IMG/VR virus record: IMGVR_UViG_2695420596_000012
Direction: 5' to 3' (one strand)
Length of the DNA stretch: 10,018 bases
From: a virus
Taxonomy: Duplodnaviria > Heunggongvirae > Uroviricota > Caudoviricetes
The position numbers and the translations under genes are program-made. Below the pieces are notes generated by a model that saw nothing but the letters and a program-made list of their open reading frames with translations, was not told where the DNA came from and searched no databases. Each line of letters begins with the position of its first letter. Position 1 is the stretch's first letter. Positions 1,029 through 7,931 of the stretch are shown here, piece by piece.

Positions 1029-1202
1029 ATGGAAGATCAAAAAGCAACCAAGCCACAGCTTAAGTTCGACACAATGAAAGCATTCGCAGGTATGGGGGCT
1101 GCTGTTGAAGTTCTGATGAAGGCTGCTCCTAATGCGTTCACTCACGCTACTGTCTCTGGTAAAGAGCAGCAGGGTAAGCTTCGTCGTCGCAAAGCAGCAT
1201 GA
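1029..1202 (+). CDS. Small hypothetical protein, 57 aa (MEDQKATKPQLKFDTMKAF...GKLRRRKAA), not in the supplied ORF track; last gene before the terminator.
   Basis: ATG 1029 preceded by GGAG (1019-1022) with 6-nt spacer. Open to TGA 1200-1202. Followed 20 nt later by a strong intrinsic terminator. Confidence 0.4.
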   Translation: MEDQKATKPQLKFDTMKAFAGMGAAVEVLMKAAPNAFTHATVSGKEQQGKLRRRKAA

Positions 1203-1220
1203 TCATAGCTGGTGCTTTTT

Positions 1221-1250
1221 GAAAACCCGCCTTTAGGCGGGTTTTTTCTT
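1221..1250. terminator. Rho-independent terminator between convergent operons; stronger in the + direction.
   Basis: Stem AACCCGCC (1224-1231), loop TTTA, stem GGCGGGTT (1236-1243), then T-run 1242-1247. On the minus strand the same hairpin is followed by TTTTC. Sits between the + ORF ending 1202 and the minus ORF whose stop is at 1250-1252. Confidence 0.75.
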
Positions 1251-1531
1251 TAGTGATGTTCTTTGCCCTTCTGTTTGCCTGTTCTGACCTGTTCCCACTC
1301 GATACGTCCTTCTTCTCGTCTTTTGTCTATGTATTCCGCAAGATCCTGAATATTGATGCAACGTTTTGCTTTTTGTGATGTGCCGATGCGATATGTTGGA
1401 ACGGGCAACTTACAAGCGTTTGCTTTTGCTTCTGCTGTGGCTGGACTCATACCAAAGTACTTTTGGCTAACTGCTGAGAGTTCAATGTTTGAGGTATTGA
1501 ATTCAGCCATCAGTAAAAACAAGGTGTTCAT
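1250..1531 (-). CDS. Small DNA-binding protein resembling the pyocin-activator PrtN / excisionase-like family; 93 aa from the ATG at 1529-1531.
   Basis: Minus-strand ORF. ATG (MNTLFLLMAEF...) preceded by GGAG with 6-nt spacer; upstream in-frame codons lack a comparable RBS. Segment KLPVPTYRIGTSQKAKRCINIQDLAEYIDKRREE resembles the PrtN-family signature from memory. Confidence 0.5.
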   Translation of the reverse strand: MNTLFLLMAEFNTSNIELSAVSQKYFGMSPATAEAKANACKLPVPTYRIGTSQKAKRCINIQDLAEYIDKRREEGRIEWEQVRTGKQKGKEHH

Positions 1532-3198: not shown

Positions 3199-4023
3199 TC
3201 AGGCGGTGAAAGTACCAATAAAGGTTTCTACTTTGCTGTCTTTGAATTTCTCAACAAGCAGATCACGAAATTCGTTAGCCATTTCTTCCTGCACCGCCTC
3301 CAGCTGAATAATGCGCAGAACCAGTACAGGACGATCGCCAGTGATAATGCTGAGGCGTAATTTAAATGGACGTTCTTTCAGACCTTCAAACGGAACGCAT
3401 TTAAATTCAAATGCCACTGGCATAATATCTTTGGTTTTCGCTTCGACAGACTCCATCAGGGAGCGTTTGCCGCTGAAGTCATTATCTTCAAAATCAGCGG
3501 TCTGGTTTGCTTCAATCGTGATTTTACGGACAGCCGCAGCCGCTTTTGTTGCCTGAATAGCGTCACCATTAGCATCAAAGCCCACAAGGTAGTCGGCCCA
3601 GTCTTCAATCCATTCTGCCAGTGACTTCTGGGAATGACGCTCGCCATTAACAGACAACAGAGCAGAGAACGGTGCTGTCTTTTTCAGTTTGAGAGTGGCA
3701 GTGTTATCTGCGTGACCTGGCTCATCAATAGTACCCAGGTTAAGCACACTGACGGCACGCATATTATCGGCATCGATAAAGCAGCGGGTGCCTTCATCTG
3801 CAAGATCTTTAGAATAACGAGTAAAGTCATCGATGCTGGCAGTGGAAAGCGCACCACGGAAACGGAAACGATTTAAATTAAATTTTTCCAGATCATGAAT
3901 GCGGAAATTCTCAGGCAATGCCACAGCATCGGCACCAATCTTACTGATAATTTCATTAACACCCTGAGCAGAAATAAGGGCATGGATTTGATTAATTGCG
4001 GTTGCGTCTAAGTTCTGAGACAT
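3199..4023 (-). CDS. yfdQ: YfdQ-like (DUF2303-type) prophage protein, 274 aa.
   Basis: Minus-strand ORF with ATG at 4021-4023 preceded by GAGGA with 6-nt spacer. Length and position between a 120-aa upstream gene and an HD-domain downstream gene match my recollection of K-12 YfdQ. Family assignment is from memory. Confidence 0.65.
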
Positions 4024-4088
4024 AATAAGTCCTCACTATATAAAAATATTCAGTGATGAGAGAAATAATCAGTTTATTAAAAACGATA

Positions 4089-4451
4089 TTAATGACCTGC
4101 TGCGCGGAGTTTTCCGTCAGGTTCACCGGCAAGAGTCAGTAATTGTCCCTGGTCTTCCTGCAGAATAGTCAGGCGACCACCGCGATTGACATACATCGGC
4201 GTTTCGGTGGTGTCTTCTTCGGAAATTTTCCCGCGGTTAGTCGGGCGAACATATGAGAGTTTGTGTTTGATTTTCACACGGTTCTCATCAAATGGTTCGA
4301 TTTCCAGGTTGAGCGAGACCTTACCTTTGGTTTTCGTATTCATCACACCGGAAGCGACTTCACTGAGAACAGCGCCGATTTTGGTTTCAAATACGCCGCC
4401 GTCCAGCTCCCCGATAAATGCCTGCACATCAGTACTGCGTTCGCTAGCCAT
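4089..4451 (-). CDS. yfdP: YfdP-like prophage protein, 120 aa, starting MASERSTDVQ; first gene of the leftward operon.
   Basis: The track ORF 4089..4637 carries a 62-codon N-terminal extension I consider non-coding. ATG at 4449-4451 has GAGGAG with ~7-nt spacer. Symbol by length and synteny only. Confidence 0.55.
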   Translation of the reverse strand: MASERSTDVQAFIGELDGGVFETKIGAVLSEVASGVMNTKTKGKVSLNLEIEPFDENRVKIKHKLSYVRPTNRGKISEEDTTETPMYVNRGGRLTILQEDQGQLLTLAGEPDGKLRAAGH

Positions 4452-4499
4452 TTTGCTGCTCCTCATCATATCGACCCTGCAAGGTCGGTTGGTTTCTCC

Positions 4500-4598
4500 A
4501 CAAAACAGAGAAGAACACCTGCGGTGGCAGCCGCCCGGATGGATTGGGTTATGAGCCCGTCGGCCGGTGATGCTCTTCTCTGTTTTGTAAAAAGAGCG
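4500..4598 (-). promoter_or_regulatory. Candidate nut/put-like leader element: boxA-like motif followed by a long stem-loop in the 5' leader of the leftward operon.
   Basis: Minus-strand CGCTCTTTTTA (complement of 4588-4598) directly abuts a 15-bp perfect inverted repeat, ACAAAACAGAGAAGA (4500-4514) and TCTTCTCTGTTTTGT (4574-4588), separated by 59 nt. Lies ~50-150 nt upstream of the YfdP-like start. Confidence 0.3.
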
Positions 4599-5079
4599 GT
4601 ACCAGCCGGAAGCAAGTGTACAAACTGGTACCGCCAAAGCAGTGGCTGTTGTGGTGACCGGTGCTGATCTCCGGCTTGCGGTTATTTCAGACTCTCACGG
4701 GCGTTTAATTGCCCCGCCGAACAGCTCTTTTCCGCAATAGCTGCAATGTCTTTCGCGCATCAGCCTGCGCATTCACCACAACGCTGAGAGCACTTAGCCA
4801 GTTACGGCACCACACTTTGTCGCGGTTCCATAAATGCCCTCATCGTTGCACCCTGGTCTCTTCCCAGGTGTCAAACCGAACCGCCACGCTGGTTAGGCGT
4901 CTTATCAGCATCATCATTGACTTGCACATTCCGGCTACCTGGTTTGTTTGCTCGAGCAAGGAGTGGATTGTCCCCTTTAACGTCCCCAGACCGCTAACGA
5001 CGCATGTGCCATACGCCGTGTTACAACCAAATTTTGTTAGTACCTTGTTTGTTTGTCTGGAAAGAAAGATAAAATGAAG

Positions 5080-5118
5080 TTGCGCATTATGCAAGTGTTT
5101 TTATTGCGAGATATGCAA
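5080..5118. promoter_or_regulatory. Two operator-like palindromes (putative OL) and probable leftward early promoter region.
   Basis: TTGCGCATTATGCAA (5080-5094) and TTGCGAGATATGCAA (5104-5118), both TTGC-N7-GCAA, centres 24 bp apart. A third copy of the same motif lies in the cI-cro intergenic region. Confidence 0.45.
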
Positions 5119-5130
5119 TTTAAAGGGTAA

Positions 5131-5152
5131 TGAAAAGCCACCTTTGGGTGGC
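5131..5152 (-). terminator. Intrinsic terminator just downstream of the repressor gene (minus strand).
   Basis: On the minus strand: stem GCCACC, loop CAAA, stem GGTGGC, then TTTTC (complement of 5133-5152). Begins ~20 nt after the cI stop at 5174. Confidence 0.55.
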
Positions 5153-5173
5153 TAATTGATGAGGAGGTAAGGG

Positions 5174-5866
5174 TTAATTGTGTCGCTTAAGGGTTTGTGA
5201 CTGGCTGATTAAGACCTTTCCAAAGACCATAAACCGGTGTTCATTTTCGCTGGTAATTCCCCATTCACGGTAAATCTGGTTATCAGAAATCACCAGTAGT
5301 TTGTCAGGTATCATTTGCAGTCGTTTGACATAAATTTTATCATCAAAACCAAATACATAGATACCATCTCCATCAAACTGATTGATACTGACATCAACGA
5401 AGATGAGATCTCCTGGCTCAATGGTTGGACACATACTGTCCCCACGAACGTTGATAACTTTAATGTGATTGGCTGGCCGTCCGCCAAACATCGATACAGC
5501 ATTATCAGTTCTGTATTCAATGGCATGAATCACATCAATGACATCACCGCCCTGGATAAGGCCATTTCCCGCACTGGCACTGACATCCAGCATTTCAATA
5601 CGGAATACATCCTTCACCTGCGCAACATCCTCACTAATACTGTTTTTACATACAGTATTACTTTTGACGTCTGAGGTAAAGAGATCAGCAATATCAACAC
5701 CTAAGCTCCTGGCAATATTACTCAGGGCTTGTTCAGTGAATTGTTTCTGCTTACCTGTTTCCAGGCGTGAGATATTCGCCGCATCCACTCCTATTGCTTC
5801 AGCGAGATCGGCGATTTTCATGTTCTTCGCCTGGCGAAGTTGTCTGACTCGGTTTCCTATGTTCAT
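5174..5866 (-). CDS. cI: CI-type prophage repressor: N-terminal HTH (XRE type) plus C-terminal LexA-like S24 autopeptidase; 230 aa.
   Basis: HTH segment MKIADLAEAIGVDAANISRLETGKQ. Ala-Gly cleavage site in SASAGNG. Catalytic-Ser motif VRGDSMCPTIEPGD and Lys in YVKRL. Divergent from the Cro-like gene. ATG at 5864-5866 has almost no SD. Confidence 0.9.
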   Translation of the reverse strand: MNIGNRVRQLRQAKNMKIADLAEAIGVDAANISRLETGKQKQFTEQALSNIARSLGVDIADLFTSDVKSNTVCKNSISEDVAQVKDVFRIEMLDVSASAGNGLIQGGDVIDVIHAIEYRTDNAVSMFGGRPANHIKVINVRGDSMCPTIEPGDLIFVDVSINQFDGDGIYVFGFDDKIYVKRLQMIPDKLLVISDNQIYREWGITSENEHRFMVFGKVLISQSQTLKRHN

Positions 5867-5963
5867 GCGTTTATTACATTTCTTTATTGCGCGTTAAGCA
5901 AATCAACTTGCGCAAAATATTTGCGTGAAATAATATGCTCATCACGCAATATGTGGAGGTCAT
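5867..5963. promoter_or_regulatory. Divergent immunity promoter/operator region (OR with PR- and PRM-like promoters).
   Basis: 97-bp cI-cro spacer containing TTGCGCGTTAAGCAA (5887-5901, TTGC-N7-GCAA) and further TTGCG half-sites at 5908 and 5921. Candidate rightward -35 TTGCGC (5908-5913) and -10 TAATAT (5931-5936) with 17-bp spacer. GGAGG at 5955-5959 before the cro ATG. Confidence 0.5.
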
Positions 5964-6224
5964 ATGCAATCACCATTACGGAATGTGCGTAAGGCGCACG
6001 GATTTACTTTGCAGCATGTTGCTGCTGGCGTTCAGGTCAATCCAGCGACGCTGAGTCGTATTGAAAGACTGGAACAAATTCCATCTATCGATCTTGCAGA
6101 ACGTCTGGCCAATTTTTTTAAGGGTGAAATCAGCGAAATGCAGATTCTTTATCCGGCACGTTTTCAATCTAGCCAAAACCAGAATGGGTTTAAACCACAG
6201 GAACAGGAGGTAAGCCGTGGGTAA
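5964..6224 (+). CDS. cro: Cro-like small HTH regulator, 86 aa.
   Basis: HTH segment FTLQHVAAGVQVNPATLSRIERLE. Divergent from cI across the operator region. GGAGG with 4-nt spacer before ATG. Confidence 0.8.
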   Translation: MQSPLRNVRKAHGFTLQHVAAGVQVNPATLSRIERLEQIPSIDLAERLANFFKGEISEMQILYPARFQSSQNQNGFKPQEQEVSRG

Positions 6225-6774
6225 TCATCACTGGAAAGTGGAAAAACAGCCTGAGTGGTACGTGAAAGCTGTCAGAAAAACTATCGCGGCGTTGCCGGAG
6301 GGTTACGCTGAAGCTGCTGAGTGGCTGGATGTAACAGAGAACGCATTATTTAACCGCCTTCGTGCCGATGGCGATCAGATTTTCCCGCTGGGATGGGCAA
6401 TGATTTTACAACGTGCTGGTGGCACTCACTTCATTGCTGACGCTGTGGCGCAGTCTGCAAATGGCGTCTTTGTGTCTCTTCCTGACGTCGAGGATGTGGA
6501 CAATGCCGATATTAACCAGCGTTTACTGGAAGTCATTGAACAGATCGGCAGTTATTCAAAACAGATTCGTTCAGCAATCGAAGACGGTGTAGTGGAACCG
6601 CATGAGAAGACAGCAATTAACGACGAACTGTATCTTTCAATTTCGAAGCTCCAGGAGCATGCAGCACTGGTCTACAAAATCTTCTGCGCTCCAGAAAATA
6701 GTAACGCCCGCGAGTGTGCAGCTCCGGGCGTCGTGGCGTCGATTGCTTCTGGTTGTGGAGAAACTAACGCATGA
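6217..6774 (+). CDS. CII-position early regulatory protein (YdaT/CII-like by position), 185 aa, GTG start; function not established from sequence.
   Basis: GTG 6217 preceded by GGAGG (6206-6210) with 6-nt spacer. Overlaps the cro 3' end by 8 nt. Stop overlaps the next ATG (ATGA at 6771-6774). Confidence 0.6.
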   Translation: MGNHHWKVEKQPEWYVKAVRKTIAALPEGYAEAAEWLDVTENALFNRLRADGDQIFPLGWAMILQRAGGTHFIADAVAQSANGVFVSLPDVEDVDNADINQRLLEVIEQIGSYSKQIRSAIEDGVVEPHEKTAINDELYLSISKLQEHAALVYKIFCAPENSNARECAAPGVVASIASGCGETNA

Positions 6775-7099
6775 ATAGTTTAACGGCAAATAACCGTTTG
6801 TCGCAACAGCTGGTGGTCAGCGTCGCTGAACACCTGTTGTTACGGCATGAATGCAGATTACCAAATCACCTGGCTGTAAGTAACCACAGAGAACTTTACC
6901 TGACTGTGGGGGGCGAGTTGTGCAGGAACTTAACCGCTGGTTTCGTGACGGAAGAGGGCTTTATGTCCATGTTATTCGTTGGGAGCCAGAAACACAGCGC
7001 GTTATCTATCTTCGCAAAGACTACCCGCATGAGTGCTTTAGTCCTTTGTGGAAATTCAGGCGTGATTTTGTTGAGTGTGAAGGACCACCAGCATATTGA
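6771..7099 (+). other. Alternative model: ~109-aa product made from frame 0 (6771-6913) joined to the -1 frame (6914-7099) at a G6 tract; frameshifted gene, programmed -1 slip, or homopolymer sequencing error.
   Basis: Heptamer G GGG GGC (6908-6914) is in X XXY YYZ register for frame 0. The -1 frame opens at 6884 and translates to a protein-like sequence (RVVQELNRWFRDGRGLYVHVIRWEPETQRVIYLRKDYPHECFSPLWKFRRDFVECEGPPAY) ending TGA 7097-7099. Confidence 0.3.
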
Positions 7100-7931
7100 T
7101 TCTGCAATTCCGGGACGTTACACTGCTCAGGCACCTTATAAAGCGGGTGCCGGGATTGGCGTCCTGAAATTGTCAACGGCGATGTATGACGCGCCAGCGT
7201 CTTTTTTATCGTCCGCATTTGCTCACATCCAGATTATGGTGGGCTGGGCGGGGGCACCGAAAGGTGCGCCGGTCTCCGTTGACGCCGGTTACGCCAACCC
7301 CGTCCAGTTCACCACCAGTGAAATTGGCGTTTCCGGTGGTGGAAGTTTTTCACTGTCAACGGAGGCTGCCATCATGGCTACGATCCCAGCCCTCACCCAA
7401 CCTGAAATCACCATTGACAACGGCCAGGCCGTTACCACTTCTTTGGCTGTTGCCAACTTCTTCTCCAAGCGTCACGACGATGTGCTGAAAAAGATCCGCA
7501 CTCTGGATTGTTCCCCAGAGTTTTGTGCCCGCAATTTTGCGGAGACATCGATTTCGGTAAATCAACCGAACGGTGGTACACGCAAGCTCCCTTGCTATCA
7601 AATCACACGAGACGGTTTTGCGTTTCTTGCTATGGGTTTCACGGGTAAACGTGCTGCCCGGTTCAAAGAGGCATACATAAATGCCTTTAACCAGATGGAG
7701 AAACAGCTTTCAAAGCCCGCTGTACCGAGCGACGTTGCACATAACGCCAGCGTTCTCTGTTCCTACATTTCATCAATTCATCAGGTCTGGCTGCAGCAGC
7801 TTTATCCTATGTTGGCAAAAGCCGAATCTCCGCTGGCTGTTAGCTTATATGACTATATTAATGATGCTTCGGCGCTGGCCAGTCTCATAAATTTGTCGCT
7901 GAACCCTTCAGAGGTAAGGGGGCGCAAATGA
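6771..7931 (+). CDS. Long ORF (386 aa) whose C-terminal half is a Rha-family phage regulatory (antirepressor-like) domain; N-terminal ~200 codons are of doubtful structure, and the Rha core probably starts at ATG 7374.
   Basis: Residues from AVTTSLAVANFFSKRHDDVLKKIR to YQITRDGFAFLAMGFTGKRAARFKEAYINAFNQME match the Rha-domain signature from memory. Internal ATG 7374 is preceded by GGAGG (7361-7365). ATG 6771 is coupled to the upstream stop. Frame 0 has no stop between 6771 and 7931. Confidence 0.45.
   Translation: MNSLTANNRLSQQLVVSVAEHLLLRHECRLPNHLAVSNHRELYLTVGGELCRNLTAGFVTEEGFMSMLFVGSQKHSALSIFAKTTRMSALVLCGNSGVILLSVKDHQHIDSAIPGRYTAQAPYKAGAGIGVLKLSTAMYDAPASFLSSAFAHIQIMVGWAGAPKGAPVSVDAGYANPVQFTTSEIGVSGGGSFSLSTEAAIMATIPALTQPEITIDNGQAVTTSLAVANFFSKRHDDVLKKIRTLDCSPEFCARNFAETSISVNQPNGGTRKLPCYQITRDGFAFLAMGFTGKRAARFKEAYINAFNQMEKQLSKPAVPSDVAHNASVLCSYISSIHQVWLQQLYPMLAKAESPLAVSLYDYINDASALASLINLSLNPSEVRGRK

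Follow-up and report, generated by a model that had tools for sequence, protein, structure and literature searches.

An early-left leader of a lambdoid prophage as a cassette of structured RNAs with a candidate small RNA of the STnc100/PasD type

Positions 4452-5079 of a viral DNA stretch of 10,018 nucleotides (nt) (IMG/VR record IMGVR_UViG_2695420596_000012; the whole stretch is called the window below) lie ahead of the first leftward gene of an SfV/mEp460/cdtI/Stx2k-type lambdoid prophage. We propose, at a probability of roughly 60%, that the leftward early transcript begins with this segment as an untranslated leader, which forms a cassette of structured RNAs, one of them a small RNA (sRNA) unit of the STnc100/PasD type, and that the segment is not a nut site. 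The segment is non-coding, holds three modules with structure and covariation (in order of leftward transcription, module D, domain B of the sRNA unit, and module A), includes a terminator (T1), and is linked to STnc100 by a chain of homology. An earlier reading of the same letters, hereafter the original prediction, had offered an antitermination site, a processing site, or a structured non-coding RNA as explanations; the last of these, a non-coding leader with three conserved and covarying modules, is supported.

The absence of any convincing open reading frame (ORF) from the leader, and of any N-like gene, had been noted in the original prediction and is borne out by comparison with relatives. 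Frames are broken or inconsistently annotated; judged by ORF conservation and by Pfam and PHROG searches, no ORF is conserved ahead of the YfdP-like gene, which comes first. Three ORFs, of 122 amino acids (aa; plus strand), 84 aa (minus strand), and 49 aa (minus strand), carry conflicting annotations on different strands in mEp460, phiSTEC1575-Stx2k, and cdtI, and none of them has a Pfam match. The 122-aa ORF is unbroken in 48 of 150 homologous loci and the 84-aa ORF in 37 of 133. The 49-aa ORF (4466-4615) is unbroken in 107 of 159, and it spans a variable hairpin with indels of +1, +2, and +25 nt; because these are not multiples of three, its frame is not kept. The sole PHROG match in the leader, phrog_33599 (E = 7e-18), is to this 49-aa ORF, which overlies T1 and module A, and the family was probably built from translations of the conserved RNA. 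A CxxC-rich translation at about 4700-4800 was also considered as a TraR/DksA-like zinc-finger pseudogene and rejected, its frames being broken and its conservation tracking RNA pairing. Folded as RNA, the 151 nt at 4490-4640 reach -70.4 kcal/mol, against -42.9 ± 4.1 kcal/mol for shuffled sequences (z = -6.7), and the full 628-nt leader gives z = -3.45.

Domain B is the central part of the sRNA unit (Table 1). Its modelled layout is tRNA-like: an acceptor-like helix (P1) sits on a T-like arm (P3), and the loops of P2 and P3 pair with each other (GCUGA with UCAGC) to form an 'elbow'. The likeness to tRNA is one of layout, as the window elements are recognized neither by ARAGORN, which finds no tRNA gene anywhere in the window, nor by the Rfam tRNA model, and they lack the D-loop and T-loop consensus. 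Among 59 diverse aligned copies, chosen by a fixed 5' 24-mer, the scaffold is fixed and the centre ranges from about 10 to more than 300 nt; the 5' flank reads AGUGCUCUYNNC and P3 ends in CCGGY. Pairing holds in 95.5% of the cells of this alignment, compared with 27-55% when the partner strand is slid. Because these sequences had been selected by the fixed 24-mer, a covariance model (R1) was made only from the subfamily of the window and run on the collected loci. It yields divergent copies with real covariation. Compensatory changes are found in P1 (GUUGCGGUG/CACCGCAAC, GAUUGGAUG/CAUCCAAUC, GUUGUGAUG/CAUCACAAC) and in P2, and P3 is found with ten or more distinct pairs of arms. The pairing between the loops shifts from GCUGA/UCAGC to ACUGA/UCAGU (GACUGA with UCAGUA), and since this pairing is absent from the R1 search model, its covariation is an independent test.

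The link to STnc100 runs through intermediates. The Rfam STnc100 model (RF02076; gathering score 47 bits) scores the SfV copy at 39.5 bits over its full 206 nt, the ST64B copy at 35.1, and the P1 copy at 33.4, with E-values from 1e-5 to 4e-4; R1 gives 41.6 bits for SfV, 45 for ST64B, and 48.8 for the third P1 copy. A further locus, L090, carries an STnc100 element (5502-5707) that exceeds the gathering score at 59.5 bits, and R1 matches its core (5566-5691, 26.2 bits, E = 1.5e-4). As R1 thus finds the SfV, ST64B, and P1 copies as well as an STnc100 above the gathering score, we regard the window copy as a divergent prophage sRNA of the STnc100/PasD type. The architecture agrees: a closing helix, AAU, hairpins, a 3' hairpin abutting the closing helix, and an intrinsic terminator are all in place, and the STnc100 consensus consists of the helix GcaUGGUG...CACCAugC, AAU, a 5' hairpin, internal hairpins, CCGGG-AGGCA-CCCGG abutting the helix, a linker, and a terminator. 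Domain B together with T1 is, as far as sequence comparison can tell, a divergent member of this known family. At L090 5137-5707 the canonical STnc100 (5707-5502) is followed about 200 nt on by a window-type domain B (5294-5137), so that two subfamilies stand in tandem. STnc100 and PasD are both prophage-borne, and PasD is an abundant Hfq-bound sRNA (10.64898/2026.05.13.724894); the Hfq binding, and base-pairing of PasD in trans with mRNAs, come from sequencing of ligated RNA pairs (RIL-seq) in enteropathogenic Escherichia coli, as cited in that source. The function of STnc100 is still unclear (PMC12370729).

The sRNA unit ends in T1, whose G+C-rich stem is perfect over 10 bp and extends to 12-13 bp in the fold. 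In nearly every homologue listed there is a hairpin of -17 to -33 kcal/mol with differing, covarying arms, followed by 5-8 U; examples of these arms are GGCGGUACCAG; GUCGGCGUC...GACGCCGAC; GGCGGCGCCAG; GGCGGCAUC; and GGCGGUUAUCCA. T1 is, on these comparisons, a conserved predicted intrinsic terminator.

The settings in which domain B recurs bear on how it might act. In exact-pattern scans of IMG/VR, each of the three modules is present in at least 120 viral contigs (domain B by its exact 24-mer), and the exact window variant of domain B is present, never annotated, in 859 of 5,426 complete E. coli genomes (~16%), on chromosomes and on P1-like plasmids. The Klebsiella T1-like phage 6991 carries domain B behind a promoter of its own (TTGACA-17-TAGATT), antisense to its neighbours. 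In P1, the C1-controlled ban operon has three B-type copies downstream of tRNA-Asn and tRNA-Thr, which overlap the doubtful ORFs plp and upl. In locus L048, copies of domain B alternate with tRNAs at tRNA spacing, one of them abutting tRNA-Ser. Taken together, these settings speak for a stable RNA that acts in trans and is possibly processed, rather than for an antitermination site acting in cis. The P1 copies lie on the ban-operon strand at 1773-1846, 2006-2123, and 2267-2406 of locus L127 (AF234172, ~69570-70205), and the reverse-strand plp and upl, which they overlap, are for that reason probably spurious. The same P1 stretch contains ACGGG(G/U)UCAUAUCCCAAUCUAC twice, a string resembling the apex of module A.

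Two observations concern the variable centre. In the window, AAAAGAGCUGU (4721-4731) is complementary at 10 of 11 positions to the T1 3' arm and U tract (4590-4600), probably by chance, since other contexts with this centre do not preserve the match. A centre variant, AGCTAGATGGTGAGGTAATGGCTCACCATGGCGACGACGGGTAG (loci L059, L066, L077, and L117), may resemble E. coli 16S rRNA at about nt 240-290.

Module A accounts for the most conspicuous feature of the original prediction, a 15-bp perfect inverted repeat with a 59-nt interior. The repeat is present (arms ACAAAACAGAGAAGA, 4500-4514, and TCTTCTCTGTTTTGT, 4574-4588) and is conserved with compensatory changes in related elements. As minus-strand RNA, and with G.U pairs, it belongs to a longer helix of 4571-4595 with 4496-4520, which encloses a three-way junction made with a CCGG/CCGG helix, an apical hairpin, and a variable hairpin (GCGG-CUGCCA-CCGC). 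The module begins inside the T1 U tract and stops some 45 nt short of the first gene's start codon. In 26 diverse sequences pairing holds in 94.8% of cells, against 36-52% with the partner slid, and eight pairs have changed on both sides (38 cells), a number that none of 500 shuffles reached. The 25-bp helix has five covarying pairs and one recurrent mismatch, and its length exceeds the 20 bp or so of near-perfect double-stranded RNA expected of an RNase III substrate; the reading as a processing site is therefore plausible for the modelled helix. Together with the C before it, the apical hairpin is identical over 14 nt to the anticodon stem-loop of the E. coli initiator tRNA (K-12 metY), and it is invariant in the 26-sequence alignment save for one loop base. 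This match was noticed post hoc, and we estimate the chance of one of such length to any E. coli tRNA at ~1e-3. Among the homologues compared, module A almost always has T1 on one side and the ribosome-binding site of the first leftward ORF on the other, regardless of the identity of that ORF, and an STnc100-type element nearly always precedes it.

Module D, which is highly conserved, is the most promoter-proximal of the three. Its terminal hairpin covaries (CCUGG/CCAGG, GCCGG/CCGGC, CCUCG/CGAGG), as does one internal hairpin by compensatory changes; the long-range RNAalifold model of the module is partial, with weak support beyond the terminal hairpins. The module is promoter-proximal also in phiV10-like phages, where it lies upstream of tRNA-Arg, and in P1 its place is after trnI and before ban. 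The module need not accompany T1, since SfV and ST64B lack it and yet keep T1 and module A. The two small hairpins of the original prediction are both present once their coordinates are corrected, at 4472-4487 (CGACC/GGTCG) and 4852-4868 (CCTGG/CCAGG), and both keep their pairing among relatives by compensatory changes; at the former the structure is kept and the sequence swapped, e.g. for GGCGG-UGGCA-GCCGCC.

Rfam has no family for module A or for module D, and no ribozyme (hammerhead or other), GOLLD or ROOL RNA, or riboswitch is matched at E <= 10; a hammerhead-like CUGAUG...GAAA resemblance is not conserved among relatives. A literature search with six conserved 25-mers from the modules returned no paper containing the exact sequence.

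Sensitive blastn comparisons show that separate parts of the 628 nt differ in their distribution among phages, i.e. that the leader is mosaic. Positions 4452-4637 are common to SfV, SfIV, ST64B, and Citrobacter phiNP, and positions 4776-5032 to phiV10-like phages (next to tRNA-Arg) and P1 (between trnI and ban). About 45 nt around 4749-4796 have ~92% identity in T1-like, jumbo Klebsiella, Edwardsiella, Erwinia, and Cronobacter phages. A tRNA was considered for these short 92%-identical matches to many unrelated phages and rejected, as they are the conserved P2 side of domain B.

Several observations agree on the minus strand. It carries the T1 U tract as well as the STnc100 matches. The genes on both sides share the strand of the element in 52 loci, and in 22 more the downstream gene does so and the upstream gene diverges; the direction of the P1 ban operon likewise agrees. 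Cells with G.U outnumber those with A.C by 36 to 15 in domain B and by 23 to 11 in module A.

Positions 4400-5180 have 96-99% identity with Escherichia phages PhiR63_1, mEp460, phiSTEC1575-Stx2k, and several Stx2a phages. Exact TTGC-N7-GCAA palindromes occur in the window only at the two presumed leftward operators and at 5887-5901, in the cI-cro gap, i.e. on both sides of the repressor gene (Table 1). These palindromes and the terminator of the repressor transcript place 4452-5079 where lambda has N and nutL. The original prediction had set the leader between a leftward promoter with operators and the first leftward gene: the operator palindromes and the position uphold this, whereas a consensus promoter scan of 4000-6300 found a leftward match only at 5957-5930 and none at the presumed PL, which leaves the exact PL start and hexamers undefined. 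The product of the YfdP-like gene is 97% identical to K-12 yfdP. The K-12 prophage CPS-53 retains yfdP, yfdQ, and yfdR, and homology with the window ends 19 nt upstream of the yfdP start codon (L300 7247-7604); all three RNA modules are consequently absent there, the RNA leader and immunity region having been replaced as a whole.

Table 1. Features of the leader and its surroundings (window coordinates; minus-strand features are written as RNA in the direction of transcription unless stated)
Feature	Position	Strand	Details
sRNA unit, STnc100/PasD-like	4588..4797	-	~210 nt: 5' flank AGUGCUCUCAGC, domain B, linker hairpin, T1
Domain B	4648..4782	-	tRNA-like layout (modelled)
Domain B, P1	4782-4774 with 4656-4648	-	9-bp closing helix, GUUGUGGUG with CACCACAAC
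Domain B, P2	4770-4755	-	GCGCA-GGCUGA-UGCGC, after AAU junction
Domain B, variable centre	4754-4676	-	
Domain B, P3	4675-4657	-	GCCGG-AGAUCAGCA-CCGGU, abutting P1 3' strand
T1, predicted intrinsic terminator	4588..4635	-	stem 4625-4634 with 4596-4605; U tract UCUUUUUA, 4595-4588
Module A	4496..4595	-	25-bp closing helix including the 15-bp repeat (4500-4514/4574-4588)
Module A, apical hairpin	4546..4558	-	GGG-CUCAUAA-CCC
Module D	4846..5031	-	186 nt, ACACGGCGUAUGGCACAUGCGUCG ... CCUGGGAAGAGACCAGG, ending in the 4852-4868 hairpin
Small hairpin	4472..4487	-	CGACC-CUGCAA-GGUCG (plus-strand letters), between module A and ribosome-binding site
Shine-Dalgarno of YfdP-like gene	4464-4459	-	GAGGAG
First leftward gene, YfdP-like	4089..4464 with Shine-Dalgarno; ATG 4451-4449	-	120 aa; phrog_204, E = 1e-49
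YfdP-, YfdQ-, YfdR-like genes	leftward from 4451	-	
Operator-like palindromes, presumed OL/PL	5080-5094 and 5104-5118 (5080..5118)	.	TTGC-N7-GCAA; centres 24 bp apart
Terminator-like hairpin	5136..5153	-	AGCCACC/GGTGGCT then TTTTCATT; ends repressor transcript, upstream of leftward operators (terminator scan)
S24/helix-turn-helix repressor gene	5174-5866	-	
Cro-like gene	5964-6224	+	
CII (CP76) gene	6217-6774	+	

From these elements we would reconstruct the following course of events. Transcription would pass through module D (5031-4846), then the sRNA unit (4797-4588), and then module A (4595-4496). On induction most leftward transcripts would stop at T1 and give a stable sRNA; of the steps proposed, this is the one that we hold with most confidence. 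By analogy with its relatives, the sRNA would bind Hfq and act by base-pairing, with the variable centre as its specificity region. Next in confidence, transcripts that read through T1 would fold module A. With least confidence, and again by analogy, the module A duplex may be an RNase III substrate, so that cleavage would free the 3' end of the sRNA and set where the yfdP mRNA starts. RNase III parts a small RNA from an mRNA in this way in the leaders of dicF, lambda N, and metY-nusA.

Several points weigh against this interpretation. The window copy has no match to the Rfam STnc100 model even at E <= 10 (gathering score 47 bits), and its membership in the family rests on the intermediates and the shared layout. 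The consensus scan gave a promoter neither for PL nor for the sRNA. The strand asymmetry of wobble pairs is only about 2:1. Complementarity of the sRNA elsewhere in the window is unexceptional, with matches of 9-12 nt at chance level, and hence points to no sRNA target there. Finally, were T1 efficient, expression of the early-left genes beyond it would stay unexplained.

Of the other explanations, two survive best, both of them improbable in our estimation. The first is a protein-independent antitermination RNA of the put kind, which the original prediction had named: module D or domain B would bind RNA polymerase, carry it past T1 and later terminators, and so replace N. In phages without N the modules do separate an early promoter from a conserved terminator, and the near invariance of P1, P2, and P3 of domain B across unrelated phages would fit binding to a conserved host machine. 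As a matter of family membership the suggestion fails: put RNAs of HK022 are two-hairpin elements of about 70 nt (PMC9378689), and nothing in the leader resembles the HK022 immunity region, with only chance-level matches of 10-15 nt in HK022 22000-32000. Nor do the settings suit it. SfV and ST64B retain T1 and module A without module D; in P1 domain B is repeated threefold in tandem among tRNAs; in phage 6991 it forms a gene of its own, convergent with the adjacent one, and nothing that could be antiterminated lies downstream; and the relatives of domain B are terminated trans-acting sRNAs. Some other cis-acting antitermination RNA is possible.

The second is that domain B and the module A hairpin are tRNA mimics, processed like tRNAs and titrating VapC-type toxins (VapC cleaves initiator tRNA), MetRS, IF3 or the 30S P site, or RNase P. 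We think this unlikely too, and about as much so as the put-like reading; it is compatible with the sRNA interpretation and does not exclude it. In its favour are the copies of domain B at tRNA spacing within phage tRNA arrays (L048, P1), the metY match in module A, invariant among homologues but for the one loop base, and a tRNA gene that shares parts of domain B. This gene, at L268 1800-1925 (126 nt), is called as a tRNA by Rfam at 40 bits and has true D and T arms; it shares with domain B the upstream flank AGTGCTCTTACC and the acceptor-like helix GTTGTGGTG/CACCACAGC, which hints, at the level of sequence, that the STnc100 superfamily is derived from tRNA. On the other side stand the rejection of the window elements by both tRNA detectors, the missing D and T loops, an apical stem of only 3 bp, the post hoc nature of the initiator tRNA match, and the fact that no defence-related partner gene was seen. 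A bolder proposal can be built on the same match, and we put it forward as a long shot: module A would exemplify an undescribed class of RNA in phage 5' leaders, its apex CGGGCUCAUAACCC mimicking the initiator-tRNA anticodon arm so as to decoy toxins (VapC, Shigella/Salmonella) or to engage the 30S P site, IF3, or MetRS and thereby gate translation of the first early gene.

Still less likely is that the leader is non-functional mosaic debris, a set of tRNA-array remnants and recombination linkers whose hairpins merely reflect tRNA ancestry. Its patchwork of pieces with differing distributions, the tRNA 3' fragments found beside some copies of domain B, and the loss of all three modules from CPS-53 would fit this. 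It is opposed by nearly invariant loops and compensatory stems across T1-like, P1-like, phiV10-like, and lambdoid phages, which point to selection on RNA structure, and by the conserved synteny of sRNA, T1, module A, and first ORF.

A boxA/N-type nut site, which the original prediction had raised, we consider very improbable. On this reading CGCUCUUUUUA would recruit NusB/NusE, the adjacent hairpin would serve as boxB, and polymerase would become resistant to termination. The boxA-like string CGCTCTTTTTA is indeed there (minus strand, 4588-4598), abutting the inverted repeat, and it fits GCUCUUU, the consensus core of rrn and lambda boxA (PMC3177189). It is, however, the end of the T1 3' arm plus the U tract, and its CGC is base-paired within the T1 stem. 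Where the window has CGCUC before the U run, relatives have CGACC, CGCCC, CGUCC, or GCAUU, so that their strings at this position read CGACCUUUUU, CGCCCUUUUU, CGUCCUUUUU, or GCAUUUUUUU; in these related elements a core like GCUCUUUA is not conserved, only the hairpin and U tract being kept. A short boxB hairpin a few nt downstream is lacking, the next structure being the 25-bp helix that closes the three-way junction; the site is at the far end of the leader, ~480 nt away from the promoter; and no arginine-rich N-type gene comes first after PL.

A hidden small protein gene such as the 49-aa ORF is the least credible reading, as this ORF, for all its phrog_33599 match and its intact frame in 107 of the loci, begins with TTG inside the T1 loop without a Shine-Dalgarno sequence, is broken by the hairpin indels, belongs to no Pfam family, and has a conservation that tracks RNA pairing.

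Elsewhere in the window, 1182-1254 (plus strand) forms a strong terminator-like hairpin, AAAACCCGCCUUUAGGCGGGUUUUUU, with weak Rfam matches to several families that contain terminators (rnk leader, RNAI, sroH); it is probably a bidirectional terminator between convergent genes.

If the cassette is as we propose, the SfV/mEp460/cdtI/Stx2-phage group has, at the position of lambda N and nutL, an sRNA cassette with its own terminator and no antitermination site. A concrete question follows, namely how phages without N express their early-left genes past a conserved terminator. The STnc100/PasD family appears to be far larger and more diverse than Rfam captures, extending to P1 and to lytic T1-like and Klebsiella phages. 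A tRNA-like scaffold around a variable centre, placed among arrayed tRNAs, is suggestive of how the family arose and how specificity could diversify. Modules A and D are two candidate new RNA families. Were the mimicry by the module A apex real, that apex and the tRNA-like STnc100 superfamily would together make up a tRNA-derived regulatory RNA family widespread in enterobacterial phages. Moreover, P1 plp and upl, phrog_33599, and a number of 'hypothetical proteins' are likely spurious annotations that seem to result from translating these RNAs.

The leader can be compared with several known systems. C4 of P1/P7 and the P4 CI RNA are leader-encoded immunity RNAs processed by RNase P. Like the leader described here, they are structured, with a long closing helix and two internal hairpins, and come from the untranslated leader of a phage operon. 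They differ in that the leader has no similarity to them in sequence or by model (the Rfam C4 model matches the window only at 7232-7319) and in that complementary target sites were not found within the window. A true C4 (7232-7319, 81 bits) and an isrK (7131-7207, 62 bits) are present in the window according to Rfam. Both lie, within 7119-7406, inside a 386-aa 'antirepressor' ORF (6771-7931), and it is precisely these RNA genes that its Pfam Phage_ASH match (aa 117-212) spans, whereas the actual Rha domain is at aa 222-311; either the start of this ORF is mis-set or the Phage_ASH family is in part a translation of RNA genes.

The lambda N leader, the dicF/dicB operon, and metY-rimP-nusA (the metY leader sequence was compared) offer the same order of parts: a tRNA, an sRNA, or nut, then a terminator, a long double-stranded hairpin, and the first ORF. 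In the present leader the putative cleavage is deduced from the 25-bp helix, within which lies a conserved three-way junction bearing an initiator-tRNA-like hairpin, a feature not known from those sites. HK022, also a lambdoid phage without functional N, carries putL and putR as RNA elements in its early leaders; they differ in sequence, size, and architecture (PMC9378689), and the window element has a terminator as its last part instead of standing ahead of one, and it can occur as an independent gene.

The closest comparison is with STnc100/PasD, prophage sRNAs known from Salmonella and pathogenic E. coli. They and the window unit are all prophage-borne, and the order of parts and the total length (~206 nt) are the same, with a closing helix GcaUGGUG...CACCAugC there and GUUGUGGUG...CACCACAAC here. 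The window copy differs in falling under every Rfam reporting level, in having two hairpins of other sequence with a Watson-Crick loop-loop pairing, GCUGA/UCAGC, and in lying in a PL leader rather than in a late or moron region; its type has a hypervariable centre and occurs also in lytic T1-like and jumbo Klebsiella phages and in P1.

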